Assembly (NCBI GenBank): GCA_037444405.1
Contig: JBBIML010000006.1
Span: 1 to 64,000 of the forward strand
Reading direction: 5' to 3'
Length of the DNA: 64,000 nucleotides
From: Armatimonadota bacterium
GTDB lineage: Bacteria; Armatimonadota; Fimbriimonadia; Fimbriimonadales; GBS-DC
The notes beneath the pieces are model-generated. The model ran no database searches and was not told where the DNA came from. It saw only the letters and a list, made by a program, of their open reading frames with translations. The stretch's first letter is position 1. Each line of letters begins with the position of its first letter. Made by a program: the position numbers and the translations under genes. Shown here piece by piece: positions 13,704 to 25,603 of this stretch.

Positions 13704-13779
13704 GGGGCGGTAGCTCAGCTGGGAGAGCGCTAGAATCGCACTCTAGAGGTCGGGGGTTCGAATCCCCTCCGCTCCACCA
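13704..13779 (+). tRNA. tRNA-Ala(CGC), copy 1 (attL)
   Basis: 76-nt cloverleaf, G3:U70, anticodon CGC, encoded CCA. GGTATAAT at 13681-13688. Confidence 0.97.
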
Positions 13780-15176: not shown

Positions 15177-15384
15177 GGGCGTTAACCTCTCCAACGATTC
15201 GGAGCTTGGCGAGAGTTCGCCCAAAGTCGCCCTTCAGAGCGAAGCGACGGCGGGTTTTCCCGTGCGCGACGGTCAGCACCAGCTCGCCGTCGCGCTGTTC
15301 GAGGTCAGCAGTGAAGTCGCCCTCGAAGTGGACAGCGCGGGTATTGCCGACATAGACGGTCAAGCTATTCGGGCGTTGGGTCAT
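15154..15384 (-). CDS. Small hypothetical protein
   Basis: GAGG RBS, overlaps both neighbours, beta-rich 76 aa. Confidence 0.7.
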   Translation of the reverse strand: MTQRPNSLTVYVGNTRAVHFEGDFTADLEQRDGELVLTVAHGKTRRRFALKGDFGRTLAKLRIVGEVNAHAEIADY

Positions 15385-15743
15385 GCGTCCTCACCTCCAG
15401 CAGGTATCAGGTCTTCTATCGCGTTGAACTCGGCTCCGTCGTCTTTCCGCTTGCGCACGACAGTGGCGAGGGCGGTCTTACCCACCAGCGCGTCAAAGTT
15501 GACCTGCTCGCCCGCCTTGATGGGGCGTCCGAGCAAGGCGCTTGCCCAGCGCATGCATTTACTTGCGAGGCTGGGCGAGAGGGTAGAGTACGCCACCAGC
15601 GTCTTGCCGTGTTCGTGAACCGCGAAAGTCCAGCGCAGTTGCTGTCCATACTGCCCGTCTACCAGTTCAATCGCGGTGAGCTCGACACGATACTCGCCAG
15701 TGGGCAGGGGTGTGTTCTCGGTCGCGGTAATGGTGATGGACAT
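15381..15743 (-). CDS. Phage-type ssDNA-binding protein-like (DUF669-like OB fold)
   Basis: 'PLPTGEY', 'LVGK...V', 'FNAI..LIP' pattern, acidic tail, GGAGG RBS. Confidence 0.6.
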   Translation of the reverse strand: MSITITATENTPLPTGEYRVELTAIELVDGQYGQQLRWTFAVHEHGKTLVAYSTLSPSLASKCMRWASALLGRPIKAGEQVNFDALVGKTALATVVRKRKDDGAEFNAIEDLIPAGGEDA

Positions 15744-15746
15744 GGT

Positions 15747-15950
15747 TTATGCCTCCCACAGCGGAAGTTGTGGAAATTGCGGGGCAGGCAAACCTCGCCC
15801 ACAGCTGTTTTTCAGTCGCCTTCGTCTTCTCGTTGCCCCGACAGGTGAACCTGTCGGGCGCGAATCGGGGAACAGGGGTTCTGGGGCGTCGATAGGAAAA
15901 GCGCCCAGTTCCTCTATCAGCCTCTGCATCAGCGCATCCCCTTCCAGCAT
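15747..15950 (-). CDS. Short ORF, probably the out-of-frame C-terminal extension of Rep
   Basis: Frame is open from 16052, no clear RBS, and it joins Rep in frame if one octamer is removed. Confidence 0.45.
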   Translation of the reverse strand: MLEGDALMQRLIEELGAFPIDAPEPLFPDSRPTGSPVGATRRRRRLKNSCGRGLPAPQFPQLPLWEA

Positions 15951-16030
15951 AACGCCTGAATCTTCTCGCGCGTTAGAGGGAGATTCGGGAGGTTGTGGAG
16001 CAGGGTTCAGCTCCTGCCGAGAGTCGGCAG

Positions 16031-16102
16031 ATTCGTCTATTCGTCTATTCGTCTATTCGTCTCTTCTCTTAAGGGAGTAGACGAATAGACGAATAGACAA
16101 AA
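16031..16102. repeat. Inverted octamer array (candidate iterons/origin)
   Basis: ATTCGTCT x4, a 16-nt core with central TTAA, then AGACGAAT x2 + AGACAAAA. Confidence 0.85.
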
Positions 16103-17557
16103 GCGATAAGGGTCGCCTTTGGAACCCGTTCCCTCGCGAGAGAGGATTCCTTGAGCGTACAGTTCCTGCAACGCCCTATAAACAGTGGGGCGTGCCAGAG
16201 CGTTATCCGTATCCGCAAGGTACTCGCGTACCTCGTCTACAGTGGCTTCTCTCAGCGCCTCCATCGCTTCCAGCACCTTCGCCTTCGCGTCCGCTTGCTT
16301 CTGCTCGCTCAGCACTTCGCTGGCAATCCCCTTGACGGCGTAGGTGGAACCGTCTTCAGAGAGTTCCAGCACCAGCGGGTCAGGCGTGGACGCCCACAGG
16401 CGTCCTGCGAGGGGAACCAGCACACGCTGGCGCTTATTCGCAGCGACGGGCAGAAGCGCAATCACGGTGTCCGCTTCTGCTACGAAGGCGTGGGAACCTG
16501 CAATATCCGCAATCTCCACATCGCGCGAGAAGTTCTTTCTGGTGTGATGCACCAGAATTATCGCTGTGCGGGGGAGTCTGCGGGAAAGGTCGACAAACGG
16601 CGCCAGCGCCTCTGCCACCGAAGCCGAGTCGTTTTCATCCTTCGCGTGCAGGAACCGCCTTATGGTGTCCACAACCACAACATCAGGCTGAATCTGCTCT
16701 ATTGCCCGCGCCCACCTGTACGGGTTCGCGCGGGGGATGGCGTTTACAAGCAGATTCGGACTGGCAAGCTCGGGGAACCGCTCCAAGCGCAGTTTCCAAG
16801 CGGCGCGAGGTTCTTCAGTGAGGTAGACAATCTTCAGCCCCATCTGAAGCCACCACCGCAGGGAATGCACCATCACCGTCGTCTTTCCCCCACCTTTGGG
16901 CGAGGCGCCGAAGAGCGTTATCGTGCCCCGCGCTATCAGCCCGTCCACACCCAGAAACGGCAGGAACTCCACCTGCCCCGGGTCAGCAGCAAGCCACTCA
17001 GCGAGGGGCACAATCAAATCGTCCTCTGAATCCCCCGCCGATGGAACTGCGCAATCGCGCAACATATTAATGGCGTTGCGCACCTGCACGCTTTCCAGCG
17101 CCTCGGGCAGGCTGTCGGGGTTATTGTAAATCTGGCTGGCAATTGACCGAATCTGCTCACGGGCATACGCGCGACGGACTTCACGAGCATAGTGGGACGC
17201 CATCGCGGGGTAGGACGCCTGTTCCGCCAGAATCGCCAGCTCAGCCCGTTCCATGCCCCCAGCGCTGGCAATCATCTCCAGCGTGGTAGGGTCAGGTGGC
17301 AGATTCTGCTCCGCTACCTGCTCCAGCGCGTGTAGAATCTCGCCGTAGCGGTTGGGCAGGGGTACGCCGTCAATCAGTGGCTTCACTTCGTCAAGGCGTT
17401 CGCGAAGTGCCTCCGTCCCATCCAGAAACGCCTGAAGAAGGCAGCCGATTAGCCCATGCGCCGATTCGCGTAGGGTATAATAGGGGCGCTGGGTTTCGGA
17501 GCTTTGCCTCCCGCCGTGTCGGCTGGCACGGCGGGGGGTTTCGTTGTTCCTCATCAT
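16037..17557 (-). CDS. Replication protein: DnaB-N-like domain + RecA-like AAA (AAA_25/RepA helicase type) + C-terminal wHTH
   Basis: 'LIGCLL...HYAREVR' DnaB-N pattern, Walker A GASPKGGGKTT, Walker B VVVVD, IILVHHTRK, AGS, C-terminal 'TVYRALQEL...GTGSKGDPYR'. Confidence 0.82.
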   Translation of the reverse strand: MMRNNETPRRASRHGGRQSSETQRPYYTLRESAHGLIGCLLQAFLDGTEALRERLDEVKPLIDGVPLPNRYGEILHALEQVAEQNLPPDPTTLEMIASAGGMERAELAILAEQASYPAMASHYAREVRRAYAREQIRSIASQIYNNPDSLPEALESVQVRNAINMLRDCAVPSAGDSEDDLIVPLAEWLAADPGQVEFLPFLGVDGLIARGTITLFGASPKGGGKTTVMVHSLRWWLQMGLKIVYLTEEPRAAWKLRLERFPELASPNLLVNAIPRANPYRWARAIEQIQPDVVVVDTIRRFLHAKDENDSASVAEALAPFVDLSRRLPRTAIILVHHTRKNFSRDVEIADIAGSHAFVAEADTVIALLPVAANKRQRVLVPLAGRLWASTPDPLVLELSEDGSTYAVKGIASEVLSEQKQADAKAKVLEAMEALREATVDEVREYLADTDNALARPTVYRALQELYAQGILSREGTGSKGDPYRFCLFVYSSTPLREETNRRIDE

Positions 17558-17778
17558 GTTCTCTCACCTCCTTGTGTTTCGAGGTCGCCCCAGAGTTCAT
17601 CGTATGGGACTCCGAGCGCGTCAGCGATTCGTTGCCGTGTGGCACGCCTCGCGGGCGGGATACCCCAGCGCTCGGCAAGCCACAGCGTATGATGGGAAAC
17701 TTTGGCACGCTTTGCCACCACAAGGGCGGGAAGCCTGCGCTCTTTGCGGAGCTGTGCGAGCTTCTCAGAGAAAGTCAT
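17554..17778 (-). CDS. Cro/CI-type HTH regulator
   Basis: MTFSEKLAQLRKER...VAKRAKVS...AE...RIADALGV. GGAGG RBS. Confidence 0.85.
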   Translation of the reverse strand: MTFSEKLAQLRKERRLPALVVAKRAKVSHHTLWLAERWGIPPARRATRQRIADALGVPYDELWGDLETQGGERT

Positions 17779-17844
17779 GCGAGGGAACACCTCCGTTAGG
17801 CAGGGATTGTATAGGGGTGGGAGCGGATTGCTCCCGACGCCCCT

Positions 17845-17874: not shown

Positions 17875-18128
17875 GGGTTGCCCTCCATGATGTAAGATTC
17901 GAGGCACTCTCCAAGATTCGCCTCGTGGTGGGCAGCCGTCAGCCGAATCGCTCGCAGAAGCACCGCCACCTCGTTCAGAGTTTCCTGTAGCGCGATGGGG
18001 TTGCGGCTGTGTTGCACCGCCTTGATGCGCTCCAGCGCCATCTGTGCGAGCGTGTTGATATCGCGGTTCACTTCCACCTCTGTTCGAATCACCTCGTAAG
18101 CGTGCCTCAGCTCCAGTTTCGGGTTCAC
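17871..18128 (-). CDS. Small helical hypothetical protein coupled to the integrase
   Basis: GTGA overlap with the integrase stop and a purine-rich RBS. Confidence 0.7.
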   Translation of the reverse strand: MNPKLELRHAYEVIRTEVEVNRDINTLAQMALERIKAVQHSRNPIALQETLNEVAVLLRAIRLTAAHHEANLGECLESYIMEGNP

Positions 18129-19063
18129 AGTTTCACCCCCTTCCGAAGGTTCCGAAGCGGGCTATGCTGGGCATGCGCCTGCTTCAGGTCGGCTTCCACG
18201 AGAGCAAGGTACTGGCGTAGCACCGTGTAATCCGAGTGCCCCATGAGCAGGCGCAGGTGTTCGAGGTCTATGCCGTTGCGAAGACTCCATGTTGCGAAGG
18301 TACGGCGAAAGGCGTGCGCACCGAGTGGTGTAATACCTGCCCGTTTCCCGATAGCCTTGATGGTGTTTTTCAGCCCGTTCAGGGTCAGCGCCCCTTTCTC
18401 GCCCTGCCACAAAGAGGAAGATTCGGCGAGTGGGCGGGGGCACGCTTTCAGGTAGCGGGTTATCGCGAGTCGGACTTCAGGCGACAGGAACACCATGCGC
18501 TGTTTCCCGCCCTTGCCACGAATCAGCACGGTTCCCTGCCGGGCGTCGCCGACGGTGAGCTGATGGGCTTCGTGAATGCGTAGCCCCGTGTCTAAGAGAA
18601 GCAACACGAGCGCCCTATCACGGAGTCGCAGCCAGTGCTTCCCCTCGCAGGCGTTCAGAATCTGCTCTACCTGTTCGGGCGTTAGGGCGGGTTTCAGTTT
18701 CGGCGGGGCTTTCGGCTTCTCCAGCGTTGCGAAGGGGTTATTCTCGGTCAGGCGCTCACGGACACACCAGCGCCAGAAAACCGCCGAGAAGGTGAAGCTG
18801 TTATGCACGGTTTTTTCCGAAAGCCCCTGCTGGCGTCGGTAAATCAGCCACCTGCGAATGTGCTGGGGCTTCACCTCGTCAAGGTCTTTCACGCCACAGT
18901 GGGCGAGAAAGTCAATAAACGGCTGAAGATAGTATCGGTAGCAGGTTATCGTGTTCGGGCTACATCCCTTAGCCGCCAGCGACTCAAGCCATATCTCTAG
19001 CGCCTGCTGTAGCGCACTCTCATGGGCTGTGATTCGAAGCGTGATTCTATCGCTGTGGAACAT
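18125..19063 (-). CDS. Tyrosine recombinase/integrase
   Basis: N-terminal SAM-like domain. Catalytic residues R (TGLRIHE), K (GKGGK), HxxR (HAFRR), H (MGH) and Y (RQY). Confidence 0.95.
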   Translation of the reverse strand: MFHSDRITLRITAHESALQQALEIWLESLAAKGCSPNTITCYRYYLQPFIDFLAHCGVKDLDEVKPQHIRRWLIYRRQQGLSEKTVHNSFTFSAVFWRWCVRERLTENNPFATLEKPKAPPKLKPALTPEQVEQILNACEGKHWLRLRDRALVLLLLDTGLRIHEAHQLTVGDARQGTVLIRGKGGKQRMVFLSPEVRLAITRYLKACPRPLAESSSLWQGEKGALTLNGLKNTIKAIGKRAGITPLGAHAFRRTFATWSLRNGIDLEHLRLLMGHSDYTVLRQYLALVEADLKQAHAQHSPLRNLRKGVKL

Positions 19064-19135
19064 AGCACCCTCCATTCGCGGGGCTGGCAGGGCGCGTTAT
19101 AGTGTGGGTTTCGAAAGTCGAGGTACAGCAGGTAT

Positions 19136-19211
19136 GGGGCGGTAGCTCAGCTGGGAGAGCGCTAGAATCGCACTCTAGAGGTCGGGGGTTCGAATCCCCT
19201 CCGCTCCACCA
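19136..19211 (+). tRNA. tRNA-Ala(CGC), copy 2 (attR), identical and full length
   Basis: Identical 76 nt to 13704-13779. Confidence 0.95.
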
Positions 19212-19357: not shown

Positions 19358-20935
19358 TCATATCTCCAGCTCAGGCTGGCAGCTCTCCACCTGAACCCGC
19401 TCCGCTGGCTGCACACCTGCCAGCAACGCCGCCGCAGGGATTTCAAACCCCCTGCCTTCAAGCAACTCCCCAACCGTGCGCATCTGCAGCCGCTGGAGCC
19501 GAAAGTTCCCCAGCGGTGTCGTGTAAAACCCCGCCTGCTCCGCCTCCCGAACCATCTCCCGCGTCGGCGGCTCCAGCGTGATAAAAAGCCCCAGCGTCGC
19601 CCGCTCCCGCTCCAGCACGCCCCGAAAGTCGCGAATATCTTTCACCCCCACGCGCCCGCTCTTGACCTGTATCACCACCTTTTTCGGATGCTCGCGCGGG
19701 TTGTCCGTAAAATGGAGCATCCCGTCAATCCCCGTGTCGGCGCCCTTCTTCTGCTGATAGGGGAACGCTCGCGGAATCAGCCCGATTGCCCACTTCTGGA
19801 ACTCGTCGCGGTCTTGCAACGCGAGCGCACGGGCGTCGTCTACCGTCGTGGGTTCGCCAATCACGCGGTAATCTTTGCCTTCCTTGAGGTCAAGCATATC
19901 GCTGAGGCGGTACTTGATGAGCGCAATCGCGAGGTGGGTGATGTCGATGCCGATCCACTGGCGTTTGAGTTTGTGGGCAGCCACGACGGCGGTTCCGCAA
20001 CCGCAGAAGGGGTCTAAAACAATATCGCCCTCGTTGCTGGACGCCTGGATGATGCGCTCCAGCAGGGCAAGCGGCTTCTGCGTGGGATAGCCGAGGCGTT
20101 CTTTTCCAATATGCATCGCATCAGGAATATCAAACCATGTATTGCCTACAAGATATTTCTCAAAAACTCTCTCGCCATCAGTTTCTAAGAAGTACTTGAT
20201 ACGAATACTTCCTGTTCGGGTGCGATATATTCGCCCTTCTGCCTCAAGCTGGCGTATTGACTCGTCCGTGTAATCACCGCGAGAGGCTGTTTTGAACCAG
20301 CGTCCCTGTTCATCCTGCCTAAATCCTGCCTTTCGCGCCTCTTCGAGGGAATATGCACGATAAATATACTGGCGGTTAAAAACATGTAGACCTTCAGATT
20401 TAGAATACATCAGTATAATATCATGATTTCGTCCGAACTGACGTGCTACAGCTTTTGCGCCCCGCCCCCCATAGTGCCACACAATCTCATTCCGAAAGTT
20501 CCGCGCCCCGAAAATCACATCCAGCATCACCTTCAAATAATGACTCGCCGTCGGGTCGCAGTGCAGGTACAGGCTCCCCGTTGGCTTCAGCACGCGGTGC
20601 AGCTCCACCAGCCGCGGCGCCATCATCACCAGATACGCCGTGACTTCGTTTCGCCCCAAAGTGCGCACGAACCCCTGCAACAGCTCCACCAGCGTGGGCA
20701 GCGGGCAGGTCTCGCAAAACTCCACATAGGCGCGTTCGCTCCACTGCCAGGTGTCGGTGAAGGCTTTGATTTGCGCCTGCGCCGGTTCGCCCGACTGCTC
20801 CCGAAACAATAGGTTATAATCGCGCTGGCTGTTGAACGGGGGGTCTAAATAAATCAGGTCTACGCTCTCGTCCCCGATATATTTGCGCAGGACCTCCAGA
20901 TTATCGCCGTAGTAAAGCGTGTTGACAGGGTGCAT
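19358..20935 (-). CDS. Beta-class N6A/N4C DNA methyltransferase with C-terminal Mrr-like domain
   Basis: DLIYLDPPF (motif IV), YPTQKP, VLDPFCGCGT (motif I), C-terminal 'GIDG...VVIQVKSG'. Confidence 0.9.
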   Translation of the reverse strand: MHPVNTLYYGDNLEVLRKYIGDESVDLIYLDPPFNSQRDYNLLFREQSGEPAQAQIKAFTDTWQWSERAYVEFCETCPLPTLVELLQGFVRTLGRNEVTAYLVMMAPRLVELHRVLKPTGSLYLHCDPTASHYLKVMLDVIFGARNFRNEIVWHYGGRGAKAVARQFGRNHDIILMYSKSEGLHVFNRQYIYRAYSLEEARKAGFRQDEQGRWFKTASRGDYTDESIRQLEAEGRIYRTRTGSIRIKYFLETDGERVFEKYLVGNTWFDIPDAMHIGKERLGYPTQKPLALLERIIQASSNEGDIVLDPFCGCGTAVVAAHKLKRQWIGIDITHLAIALIKYRLSDMLDLKEGKDYRVIGEPTTVDDARALALQDRDEFQKWAIGLIPRAFPYQQKKGADTGIDGMLHFTDNPREHPKKVVIQVKSGRVGVKDIRDFRGVLERERATLGLFITLEPPTREMVREAEQAGFYTTPLGNFRLQRLQMRTVGELLEGRGFEIPAAALLAGVQPAERVQVESCQPELEI

Positions 20936-20965
20936 GGCAGTAGAGATTGTACCTGATGGGTTCTG

Positions 20966-21149
20966 GTAGGGGCGACGCATGCGTCGCTCCTACGCTGATG
21001 GTGCGCCCGTACGGCTGTGCGCCCGTGCGGTGGATATGCGGGTAGGGGCGCACGGACGTGCGCCCCTACCTGTCCCCCGCCCTTGCAGGTTCCCCCTCGC
21101 TTCAGCGTCGGGCAAAGGTGGTGCGGAAGCGCAGCTTCCACAGTCCATA
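20966..21149. repeat. Cluster of GTAG-type REP palindromes
   Basis: GTAGGGGCGACGCATGCGTCGCTCCTAC (20966-20993), GTAGGGGCGCACGGACGTGCGCCCCTAC (21042-21069) and degenerate copies. Confidence 0.8.
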
Positions 21150-25505: not shown

Positions 25506-25603
25506 CATACCTCTTTGAGTGCGGAAGCAGGGCTTCCGCACTCATATTAGCACCATACCTCTTTGAGTGCGGAAGCAGGGCTTCCGCATTCCATATTAGC
25601 ACC
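25506..25603. repeat. Tandem ~48-bp duplication containing the REP-like palindrome
   Basis: CATACCTCTTTGAGTGCGGAAGCAGGGCTTCCGCA... starts at 25506 and at 25554. Confidence 0.85.

Follow-up and report, generated by a model that had tools for sequence, protein, structure and literature searches.

In the 64,000-nucleotide (nt) stretch of DNA analysed here (the window; positions 1 to 64,000 of contig JBBIML010000006.1, assembly GCA_037444405.1, from an Armatimonadota bacterium), the replicase gene rep of a small integrative replicon is interrupted by an array of tandem octamers that lies within the gene. The truncation of Rep was probably caused by the gain of one unit at this hypermutable, iteron-like array, and it left a conserved C-terminal tail orphaned downstream. 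It is best described as a recurrent and tolerated polymorphism, not as a demonstrated regulated switch. The gene and its parts are arranged as follows, all on the minus strand:

16037-17557, minus strand: truncated replicase Rep, 506 amino acids (aa), with a weak DnaB-N-like N-terminus, an AAA_25 domain at residues 204-342 and a winged helix at residues 423-486.
16078-16102, minus strand: palindrome 5' arm, two perfect units and one degenerate unit, translated FCLFVYSS; one unit shorter in a second sample.
16063-16077, minus strand: palindrome centre or loop, with CTTAAG at 16068-16073; homologues have CTTAAT or CTTAAG in the matching position.
16031-16062, minus strand: palindrome 3' arm, four perfect AGACGAAT units on the coding strand, whose unit junctions read TAG, one per frame.
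16037-16039, minus strand: Rep stop codon TAG, formed in the sequence where the final T of unit 3 meets the AG of unit 4.
16014-16030, minus strand: small perfect hairpin CTGCCGA-CTC-TCGGCAG, immediately 3' of the last unit.
15747-16031, minus strand: frame of the orphaned Rep tail (94 codons and a stop), which contains a 67-aa open reading frame (ORF67, 15950-15747) and has its homologue in the C-terminus of full-length relatives.

The four perfect units read ATTCGTCT on the plus strand and AGACGAAT on the coding strand. Tandem Repeats Finder described this array with a period of 8, 4.5 copies and 96% matches (16031-16066), and it placed an inverted array of 2.6 copies of TAGACGAA at 16078-16098. 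The two arrays pair as a 27-nt inverted repeat that is 93% complementary. The palindrome begins directly after the winged-helix domain, and the order on the coding strand is TTTTGTCT ATTCGTCT ATTCGTCT A, then ctcccTTAAGagaag, then four units of AGACGAAT, and finally the small hairpin. The folding energy of the palindrome region as RNA is -65.5 kcal/mol (z = -9.2), and none of 200 shuffled sequences was equally stable. When a 16-mer of two units was sought with up to two mismatches, five sites were found in the window, all inside 16031-16102, and none of 100 shuffles held any site. A terminator scan of 15300-16400 returned no terminator-like site. No T-run follows either hairpin, and the hairpin at 16014-16030 therefore does not resemble a terminator. 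In the array region, a promoter scan gave no promoter-like site, and Rfam yielded nothing beyond a snoRNA hit under threshold (E 0.26; 17.3 bits, where the gathering score is 48).

The arithmetic of the reading frames follows from the length of the unit. Each unit is 8 bp long, so any change in unit number that is not divisible by three shifts the frame. The three junctions of a four-unit array each place TAG in one frame, and all three frames are thus closed by four units. An earlier note on this DNA had proposed that the fourfold octamer creates the Rep stop, and this was borne out: Rep ends in ...RRIDE-TAG, with the TAG on the junction of units 3 and 4. The length that the note gave for an array with one unit fewer (506 + 27 + 67 = 600 aa) was confirmed by reading the frame. 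Upstream, the frame of ORF67 stays open until it meets the TAG between units 1 and 2, and it reads TNRRIDE-SADSRQELNPAPQPPESPSNAREDSGV-MLEGD..., where SADSRQELNPAPQPPESPSNAREDSGV stands for SADSRQ...GV. The tail frame and the Rep frame overlap by 16 nt (ACGAATAGACGAATAG). The first start codon in the tail frame lies 87 nt past the Rep stop and has no Shine-Dalgarno (SD) sequence. The note was also right that ORF67 has no clear ribosome-binding site, since nothing before it resembles the SD sequences of its neighbours (AAGGAGG before Rep, GGGAGG before the next gene, which encodes a 120-aa protein). Its stop does lie near the ribosome-binding site of that next gene, and its final codons include the GGGAGG.

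Rep itself occurs in a single copy in the 2.68-Mb genome. Its ATPase domain is of the AAA_25 (RecA/RadA-like) kind (E 2.1e-12), and the nearest solved and curated relatives of this domain are RadA/Sms proteins of the RecA fold. The winged helix is of the Penicillinase_R type (E 1.4e-5, passing its cut-off). The DnaB-N-like match is weak and under its cut-off, and no match to a Toprim primase was found in the window Rep.

The orphaned tail was identified from the homologues of Rep. A search yielded 183 proteins at E <= 1e-3, of which the best 120 were taken. Counts of where the proteins end cover 119 of these, P0035 having been left out because the motif at the end of the winged helix is absent from it. 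Within the best 120 of 183, the typical homologue is about 770 aa long, combines a Toprim domain, AAA_25 and a winged helix, and comes from Armatimonadota/Fimbriimonadales metagenomes; the Toprim domain is PF13155 in most and a dnaG domain in P0008. The closest among the homologues listed, P0002 (792 aa; 63% identity at 96% coverage), resembles the window Rep in having an N-terminus without primase, and its C-terminal sequence reads ...LEGEALVQALIQVLGAYPVDEPP...LKNGSGSGLTAPQLSLWEA. The 94-aa tail frame aligns with the last 76 residues of P0002 over 86 columns at 56% identity (E 3e-19). This alignment begins 17 residues upstream of the ATG of ORF67. ORF67 is therefore the orphaned end of Rep and not a separate gene. 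The tail is carried by the closest relative and by most of the family: 105 of the 119 proteins run 134-291 aa beyond the winged helix, and the other 14 end within 72 aa of it.

The C-terminal ends of most family proteins follow the pattern ...NG.....QL.L.., and conservation of the last tail residues may largely reflect the SD sequence of the next gene. The motif QL[SD]LF is a beta-clamp motif. The tail end QLPLWEA was tried as a clamp motif: when the complex of the 75-aa tail and the host DnaN was predicted, both given as alignments, the scores of 0.00 and 0.01 fell short of the mark of 0.32 and lent no support. A model of the C-terminal domain that precedes the tail in the family had a mean predicted local distance difference test score (pLDDT) of 58; its last 28 residues appear disordered, and elsewhere it shows helices and a hairpin with modest confidence. 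A Foldseek search of this model against PDB gave no match at E <= 0.001. In P0002 and at locus L016, three to four copies of a segment ...ESPDNPP..EDSAL... stand between the palindromes and the tail, and recombination among segment copies of the P0002 type could have deleted the C-terminal domain in the window lineage. A search with the window Rep as query found it in 9 of 61 related genomes, the window's own genome included, and Rep was found at high similarity in none of three genomes of the same genus. Locus L069, the closest relative at the DNA level, shares about 80% nucleotide identity with the window integrase and with Rep residues 112-303, and unrelated sequence replaces Rep past residue 303; the locus looks decayed or rearranged.

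The palindrome is a feature of the whole family. It was followed through loci from related genomes, 72 metagenome loci and 4 genome loci, and in every homologous locus read the PYxF/Y that closes the winged helix leads straight into tandem octamers, a CTTAAT or CTTAAG centre and inverted octamers. Typically, the 5' arm holds about three units and the 3' arm two or three, with the palindrome translated in frame. The octamer itself is specific to the element (ATTCGTGC, TGCAATAG, GGCAATCT/G, GTGCAATC, GTGCTATC, TTGGCAAC and others), and among 54 sequences each unit type matches a distinct signature of the recognition helix and wing. Furthermore, a second cluster was found in many loci. The scan for it covered 48 distinct loci with at least 1250 nt upstream and a definable tandem arm. 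Eight loci in which no such arm could be defined were excluded, and three rows were scored on the 5' arm instead of the 3' arm. In 32 of the 48, the octamer pair of the palindrome reappears in the linker that precedes the ATPase, 945-988 nt upstream (at most two mismatches over 16 nt), and it has no match in the 780 nt between the two clusters. The suggestion in the earlier note that the octamers are iterons thus appears sound, as judged from their element-specific sequence, their tie to the winged-helix type and the second cluster about 1 kb upstream.

The window carries a related feature in the N-terminal part of rep, located partly by eye:

17041-17082, minus strand: N-terminal linker octamer pair TTGCGCGA TTGCGCAG, after ATTAAT-ATG, translated NMLRDCAV.

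The unit type of this pair is unlike the ATTCGTCT type of the C-terminal linker and resembles that of P0002, the closest homologue. This suggests a mosaic gene whose N-terminal part came from an element of other iteron specificity. Two successive palindromes follow the winged helix at L020, L071 and L079 and at L022, L034, L044 and L056. Some double palindromes mix unit types (TCGTGCAA then GGGCAATC), which points to recombination at palindromes and to modular exchange. A search with the 16-mer ATTCGTCTATTCGTCT returned 19 viral contigs, none encoding a Rep homologue, and in 400 genomes of the phylum the same 16-mer gave one isolated and unrelated match (G169).

Unit number and frame integrity vary together across the family. 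Among loci with GGCAATC-type units, those with three units are in frame (L036, L041, L045, L051 and others), L057 with two units and L027 with five are truncated, and L028 with six reads through. Likewise, L017 with two units is truncated, whereas L002 with three is in frame. In each case the C-terminal domain and tail resume in the frame that the unit arithmetic predicts. To count such breaks, 75 loci with a winged-helix match were reduced to 66 distinct sequences by removing identical 900-nt signatures. Of these, 43 stay in frame for at least 120 aa, 16 break off no later than 75 codons past the winged helix, and 7 leave the contig, so that 16 of 59 assessable sequences are interrupted. Any stop in the 330 codons before the winged helix was seen in only 3 of 66. 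At L017, L022 and L027 the downstream 158-257 codons, which encode the C-terminal domain and tail, are fully open in another frame; L057 has extra stops and is degenerate elsewhere too. The truncated end with five units is shared by proteins whose pairwise identities are 98% and 86-87%, so short alleles persist or recur. Compared with their nearest in-frame relatives, truncated loci are 93-97% identical upstream and about 80% identical downstream.

Variation was also observed between close strains. Alleles were compared as Logan contigs from three runs of one study. The Logan assembly of the probable source run reproduced a 2.8-kb stretch of the window without differences. In a second sample (X2), where 2801 nt show 3 substitutions relative to the window, a gap-free contig over 15000-16068 holds all four units of the 3' arm. 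Another X2 contig, over 16065-17800, lacks 8 nt at 16078, which makes the 5' arm one unit shorter. Two short X2 contigs complete the picture: one of 56 nt places 52 nt on 16039-16090 at about double depth, and one of 91 nt links 16090 to 16039 through 35 other letters. As reconstructed from contig ends and depths, these pieces fit two tandem palindromes with a 31-nt spacer, an in-frame insertion of 87 nt, and the X2 Rep so reconstructed still stops at the first TAG. The structure of the palindrome therefore differs between strains that are 99.9% identical elsewhere. A third run (X3) had no match to the element. No in-frame (three-unit) allele of the window element was seen in the source-run and X2 contigs, and contigs drop rare variants. 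These data also bear on whether the fourth unit is an assembly or sequencing error. Tandem repeats within a palindrome are hard to assemble, and the X2 contigs do break here. However, the independent Logan assembly is identical over 2.8 kb and an X2 contig spans all four units, and such an error is very improbable.

The reading favoured here may be set out as follows. The palindrome of 8-bp iteron-like units would most likely be the binding site of the Rep winged helix and the origin of the element. In the family, it is normally translated in frame, with about three units per arm, into the C-terminal domain and tail. The 3' arm of the window element would then have gained one unit, perhaps by slipped-strand or hairpin-mediated mispairing. 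The gained unit would have put TAG in frame and shut all three frames, and Rep would be made as a 506-aa protein that ends just past the winged helix, with the 94-aa tail as an orphan frame. The earlier note had offered two outcomes, truncation by one-unit slippage or a reversible switch. The first agrees with the in-frame family norm of about three units; for the second, no in-frame counterpart was seen among the window and X2 alleles, both of which are truncated.

Several observations weigh against the favoured reading or narrow it. The ancestral state is taken from relatives of other unit types, since no three-unit allele of the element's own type was found and the nearest relative is only 63% identical. 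The association between winged helix and unit type may reflect physical linkage only, because the array abuts the winged-helix codons. The window tail, and with it the would-be 600-aa form, lacks the helical C-terminal domain (AEARGFP...AGTPA; estimated at roughly 100 or 150 aa) that most homologues hold between palindrome and tail, and a second cognate iteron cluster was found nowhere in the 64-kb window, the N-terminal linker units being of another type. With the domain and the cluster missing and the N-terminal linker units foreign, the element may already be defective in other ways. That such elements do decay is apparent from L069, with its Rep broken at residue 303. Nor is unit slippage the only route to a broken frame, given that L022 is broken by a 1-nt indel and several other loci are broken at the second palindrome or at the in-frame TAA of its centre. 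The count of 16 interruptions contains near-duplicates (L054/55/58, L059/60/63 and L043/52) and corresponds to about 10 independent events. Finally, a simple lesion explains the persistent truncated alleles with intact downstream frames no better than a tolerated split or a reversible switch would.

The first alternative is a reversible contingency switch, exploited by the element, in which unit number flips Rep at appreciable frequency between a long form and a short one whose end is the winged helix. For instance, a replication-competent initiator could alternate with an origin-binding short form that limits replication, with the iteron number changing simultaneously. Much of the anatomy is as such a switch would have it: the repeat unit lies inside an ORF and its length is not a multiple of three, the frames on either side of the tract are intact in out-of-frame alleles (the window, L017, L022 and L027), and a single step of -1 in the 3' arm restores the 600-aa frame. 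Tract length also varies among relatives and between the two near-identical samples, and interruptions cluster at palindromes, the point at which 14 of the 119 protein clusters stop. For plasmid pIGRK, a long and a short Rep with opposing roles have been described (PMC6854812). Yet both sampled alleles of the window element are truncated in the contigs, and no ON allele was seen there. The arrays are short (2-6 units), a length at which slippage is usually rare, and no ON/OFF pair was found in the same background, the nearest in-frame relatives being 93-97% identical upstream. A switch of this kind is considered unlikely. The second is a tolerated gene fission, in which the tail and C-terminal domain are dispensable or separately made (by re-initiation or from a start of their own), the four-unit allele is functionally equivalent and the iteron site alone is affected by copy number. 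Truncated forms are indeed common (14 of 119) and persist in backgrounds that are 86-87% identical. In the L054 group the C-terminal part follows an in-frame stop at the palindrome centre and has its own Met codons, and the element's genes are closely coupled, their stops overlapping the SD sequence of the following gene. Fission sits poorly with the tail frame of the window, which has its first start 87 nt after the Rep stop and no SD sequence, with homology that reaches upstream of the ORF67 ATG, and with the fusion being kept in 105 of 119 family members. It is judged quite improbable.

The remaining alternative is programmed recoding, by which a frameshift or stop read-through would give the long form from the four-unit allele. 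The Rep stop is flanked by a strong stem-loop and a second hairpin, and the tail and Rep frames overlap over 16 nt. However, the overlap ACGAATAGACGAATAG contains no slippery heptamer of the form X XXY YYZ. If the TAG is read as a residue, a further stop follows 10 codons on in the Rep frame and the tail is not entered. The truncated homologues break at differing positions and would need shifts in differing directions, and no Rfam recoding element was found in the array region. Recoding therefore has hardly any likelihood.

Parts of this arrangement have been described in other replicons. The alpha protein of P4 joins priming, helicase and a C-terminal winged-helix origin-binding domain in one polypeptide, and its winged helix binds the origin repeats (PMC4234260); most Rep homologues similarly combine Toprim, ATPase and winged helix. 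There are also clear differences. The ATPase of Rep is AAA_25/RadA-like (RecA fold), the window Rep has no primase domain, the Rep-family repeats lie within the coding sequence as an inverted palindrome, and an extra C-terminal domain and tail follow them. The helicase type of P4 alpha is different from AAA_25/RadA-like. P4 uses two repeat clusters, ori and crr, and Rep family loci likewise hold two clusters of one octamer (32 of 48). In lambda, the iterons lie inside the O gene. Replication of N15 starts within repA (PMC2847241). The origin of pRN1 is described as a stem-loop just 3' of orf904, a gene for a primase, helicase and winged helix, with conserved structure and variable sequence (PMC4234260). 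The Rep family shares with N15, pRN1 and lambda an origin embedded in or abutting the replicase gene. It differs from them in that the units are contiguous 8-bp repeats whose period is not a multiple of three, so that a change in copy number breaks the frame.

Phase-variable contingency loci provide another comparison. As in these loci, a unit whose length is not a multiple of three lies in an ORF, the tract is polymorphic, and out-of-frame alleles have intact flanking frames. In contrast to them, the Rep tracts are short, with 2-6 units of 8 bp each, they are probable binding sites of the encoded protein, and no ON/OFF mixture was seen in the contigs of this element. The RepR and RepR' proteins of pIGRK show that a full initiator and a shorter regulatory form can both be encoded at a single rep locus; there, an internal start lets one allele yield the two forms, and the short one is truncated at its N-terminus (PMC6854812). 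The short Rep of the window, by contrast, is C-terminally truncated and set by genotype. Full-text literature searches found no report of iteron slippage that switches Rep isoforms or breaks a rep frame.

Origins within replicase genes and frame switching driven by repeats are each already known; in this family they occur together. Because the probable binding sites of the replicase are 8-bp tandem units in its own frame, origin evolution and protein integrity are mechanically coupled. About a quarter of the sampled family members are broken at the palindromes with the remainder of the gene intact. The most far-reaching interpretation is that of a family of integrative replicons, centred on Armatimonadota, whose 8-bp origin iterons inside the replicase ORF slip so as to change iteron number and, at the same time, reversibly and heritably toggle between a full-length initiator and a short form that stops at the winged helix yet can bind the origin. 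This interpretation is distinctly doubtful. If it were true, it would amount to a genotype-level switch of replication competence or incompatibility that is made from the origin itself. If the breaks are reversible and exploited, a mobile element would here be controlling its replication state by a novel means; otherwise they clearly exemplify a mutational weak point that is built in. In annotation, a short "Rep" gene trailed by an orphan ORF should, within this family, be regarded as a split gene.

The element that carries rep is a small integrative replicon without virion genes. It spans about 5.4 kb between two identical full-length tRNA-Ala(CGC) genes, the identical stretch being about 80 nt long, and the copies at its two ends look like intact attachment (att) sites. 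Its content comprises a tyrosine integrase, an 85-aa ORF, a helix-turn-helix regulator, Rep with ORF67, the 120-aa gene, a 76-aa gene, a VRR-NUC nuclease and a 203-aa gene. Features of this surrounding region are:

13704-13779, plus strand: tRNA-Ala(CGC) gene, left boundary of the element.
15381-15743, minus strand: 120-aa gene of predicted OB-fold (PrgE-like or SSB-like, for single-stranded DNA-binding protein), which also follows the Rep tail in relatives.
18125-19075, minus strand: tyrosine integrase, beside the right tRNA copy.
19136-19211, plus strand: identical second copy of tRNA-Ala(CGC), right boundary of the element, adjoining the integrase.

Immediately behind the Rep tail, the 120-aa gene is conserved in 14 or more related loci. 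No match to it was found in Pfam, PHROG or NCBIfam. Its predicted structure is a confident OB-fold (pLDDT 88.6), with PrgE of plasmid pCF10 as the closest match (E 2e-5; template modelling (TM) score 0.67) and SSBs next. The earlier description of this neighbour as SSB-like therefore agrees with a predicted OB-fold protein nearest to the plasmid SSB-like PrgE.

Coupling between genes extends through the element, in which stops overlap the SD sequence of the next gene. In related elements, gene ends overlap the GGAGG of the next gene, which may reflect either translational coupling or a common C-terminal motif. At L002, L003, L010, L023, L030, L039, L044, L070 and L079, another gene farther downstream ends in ...QL(L/R)LEV-stop. 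Just outside the element, 19358-20980 on the minus strand encodes a 540-aa protein in which an N6/N4 DNA methylase is fused to an Mrr_cat restriction-endonuclease-like domain. Farther along the window, the tandem-repeat table lists a 48-nt unit present twice at 25506-25603 (96% matches), which contains the GC-rich hairpin GCGGAAGC...GCTTCCGC.

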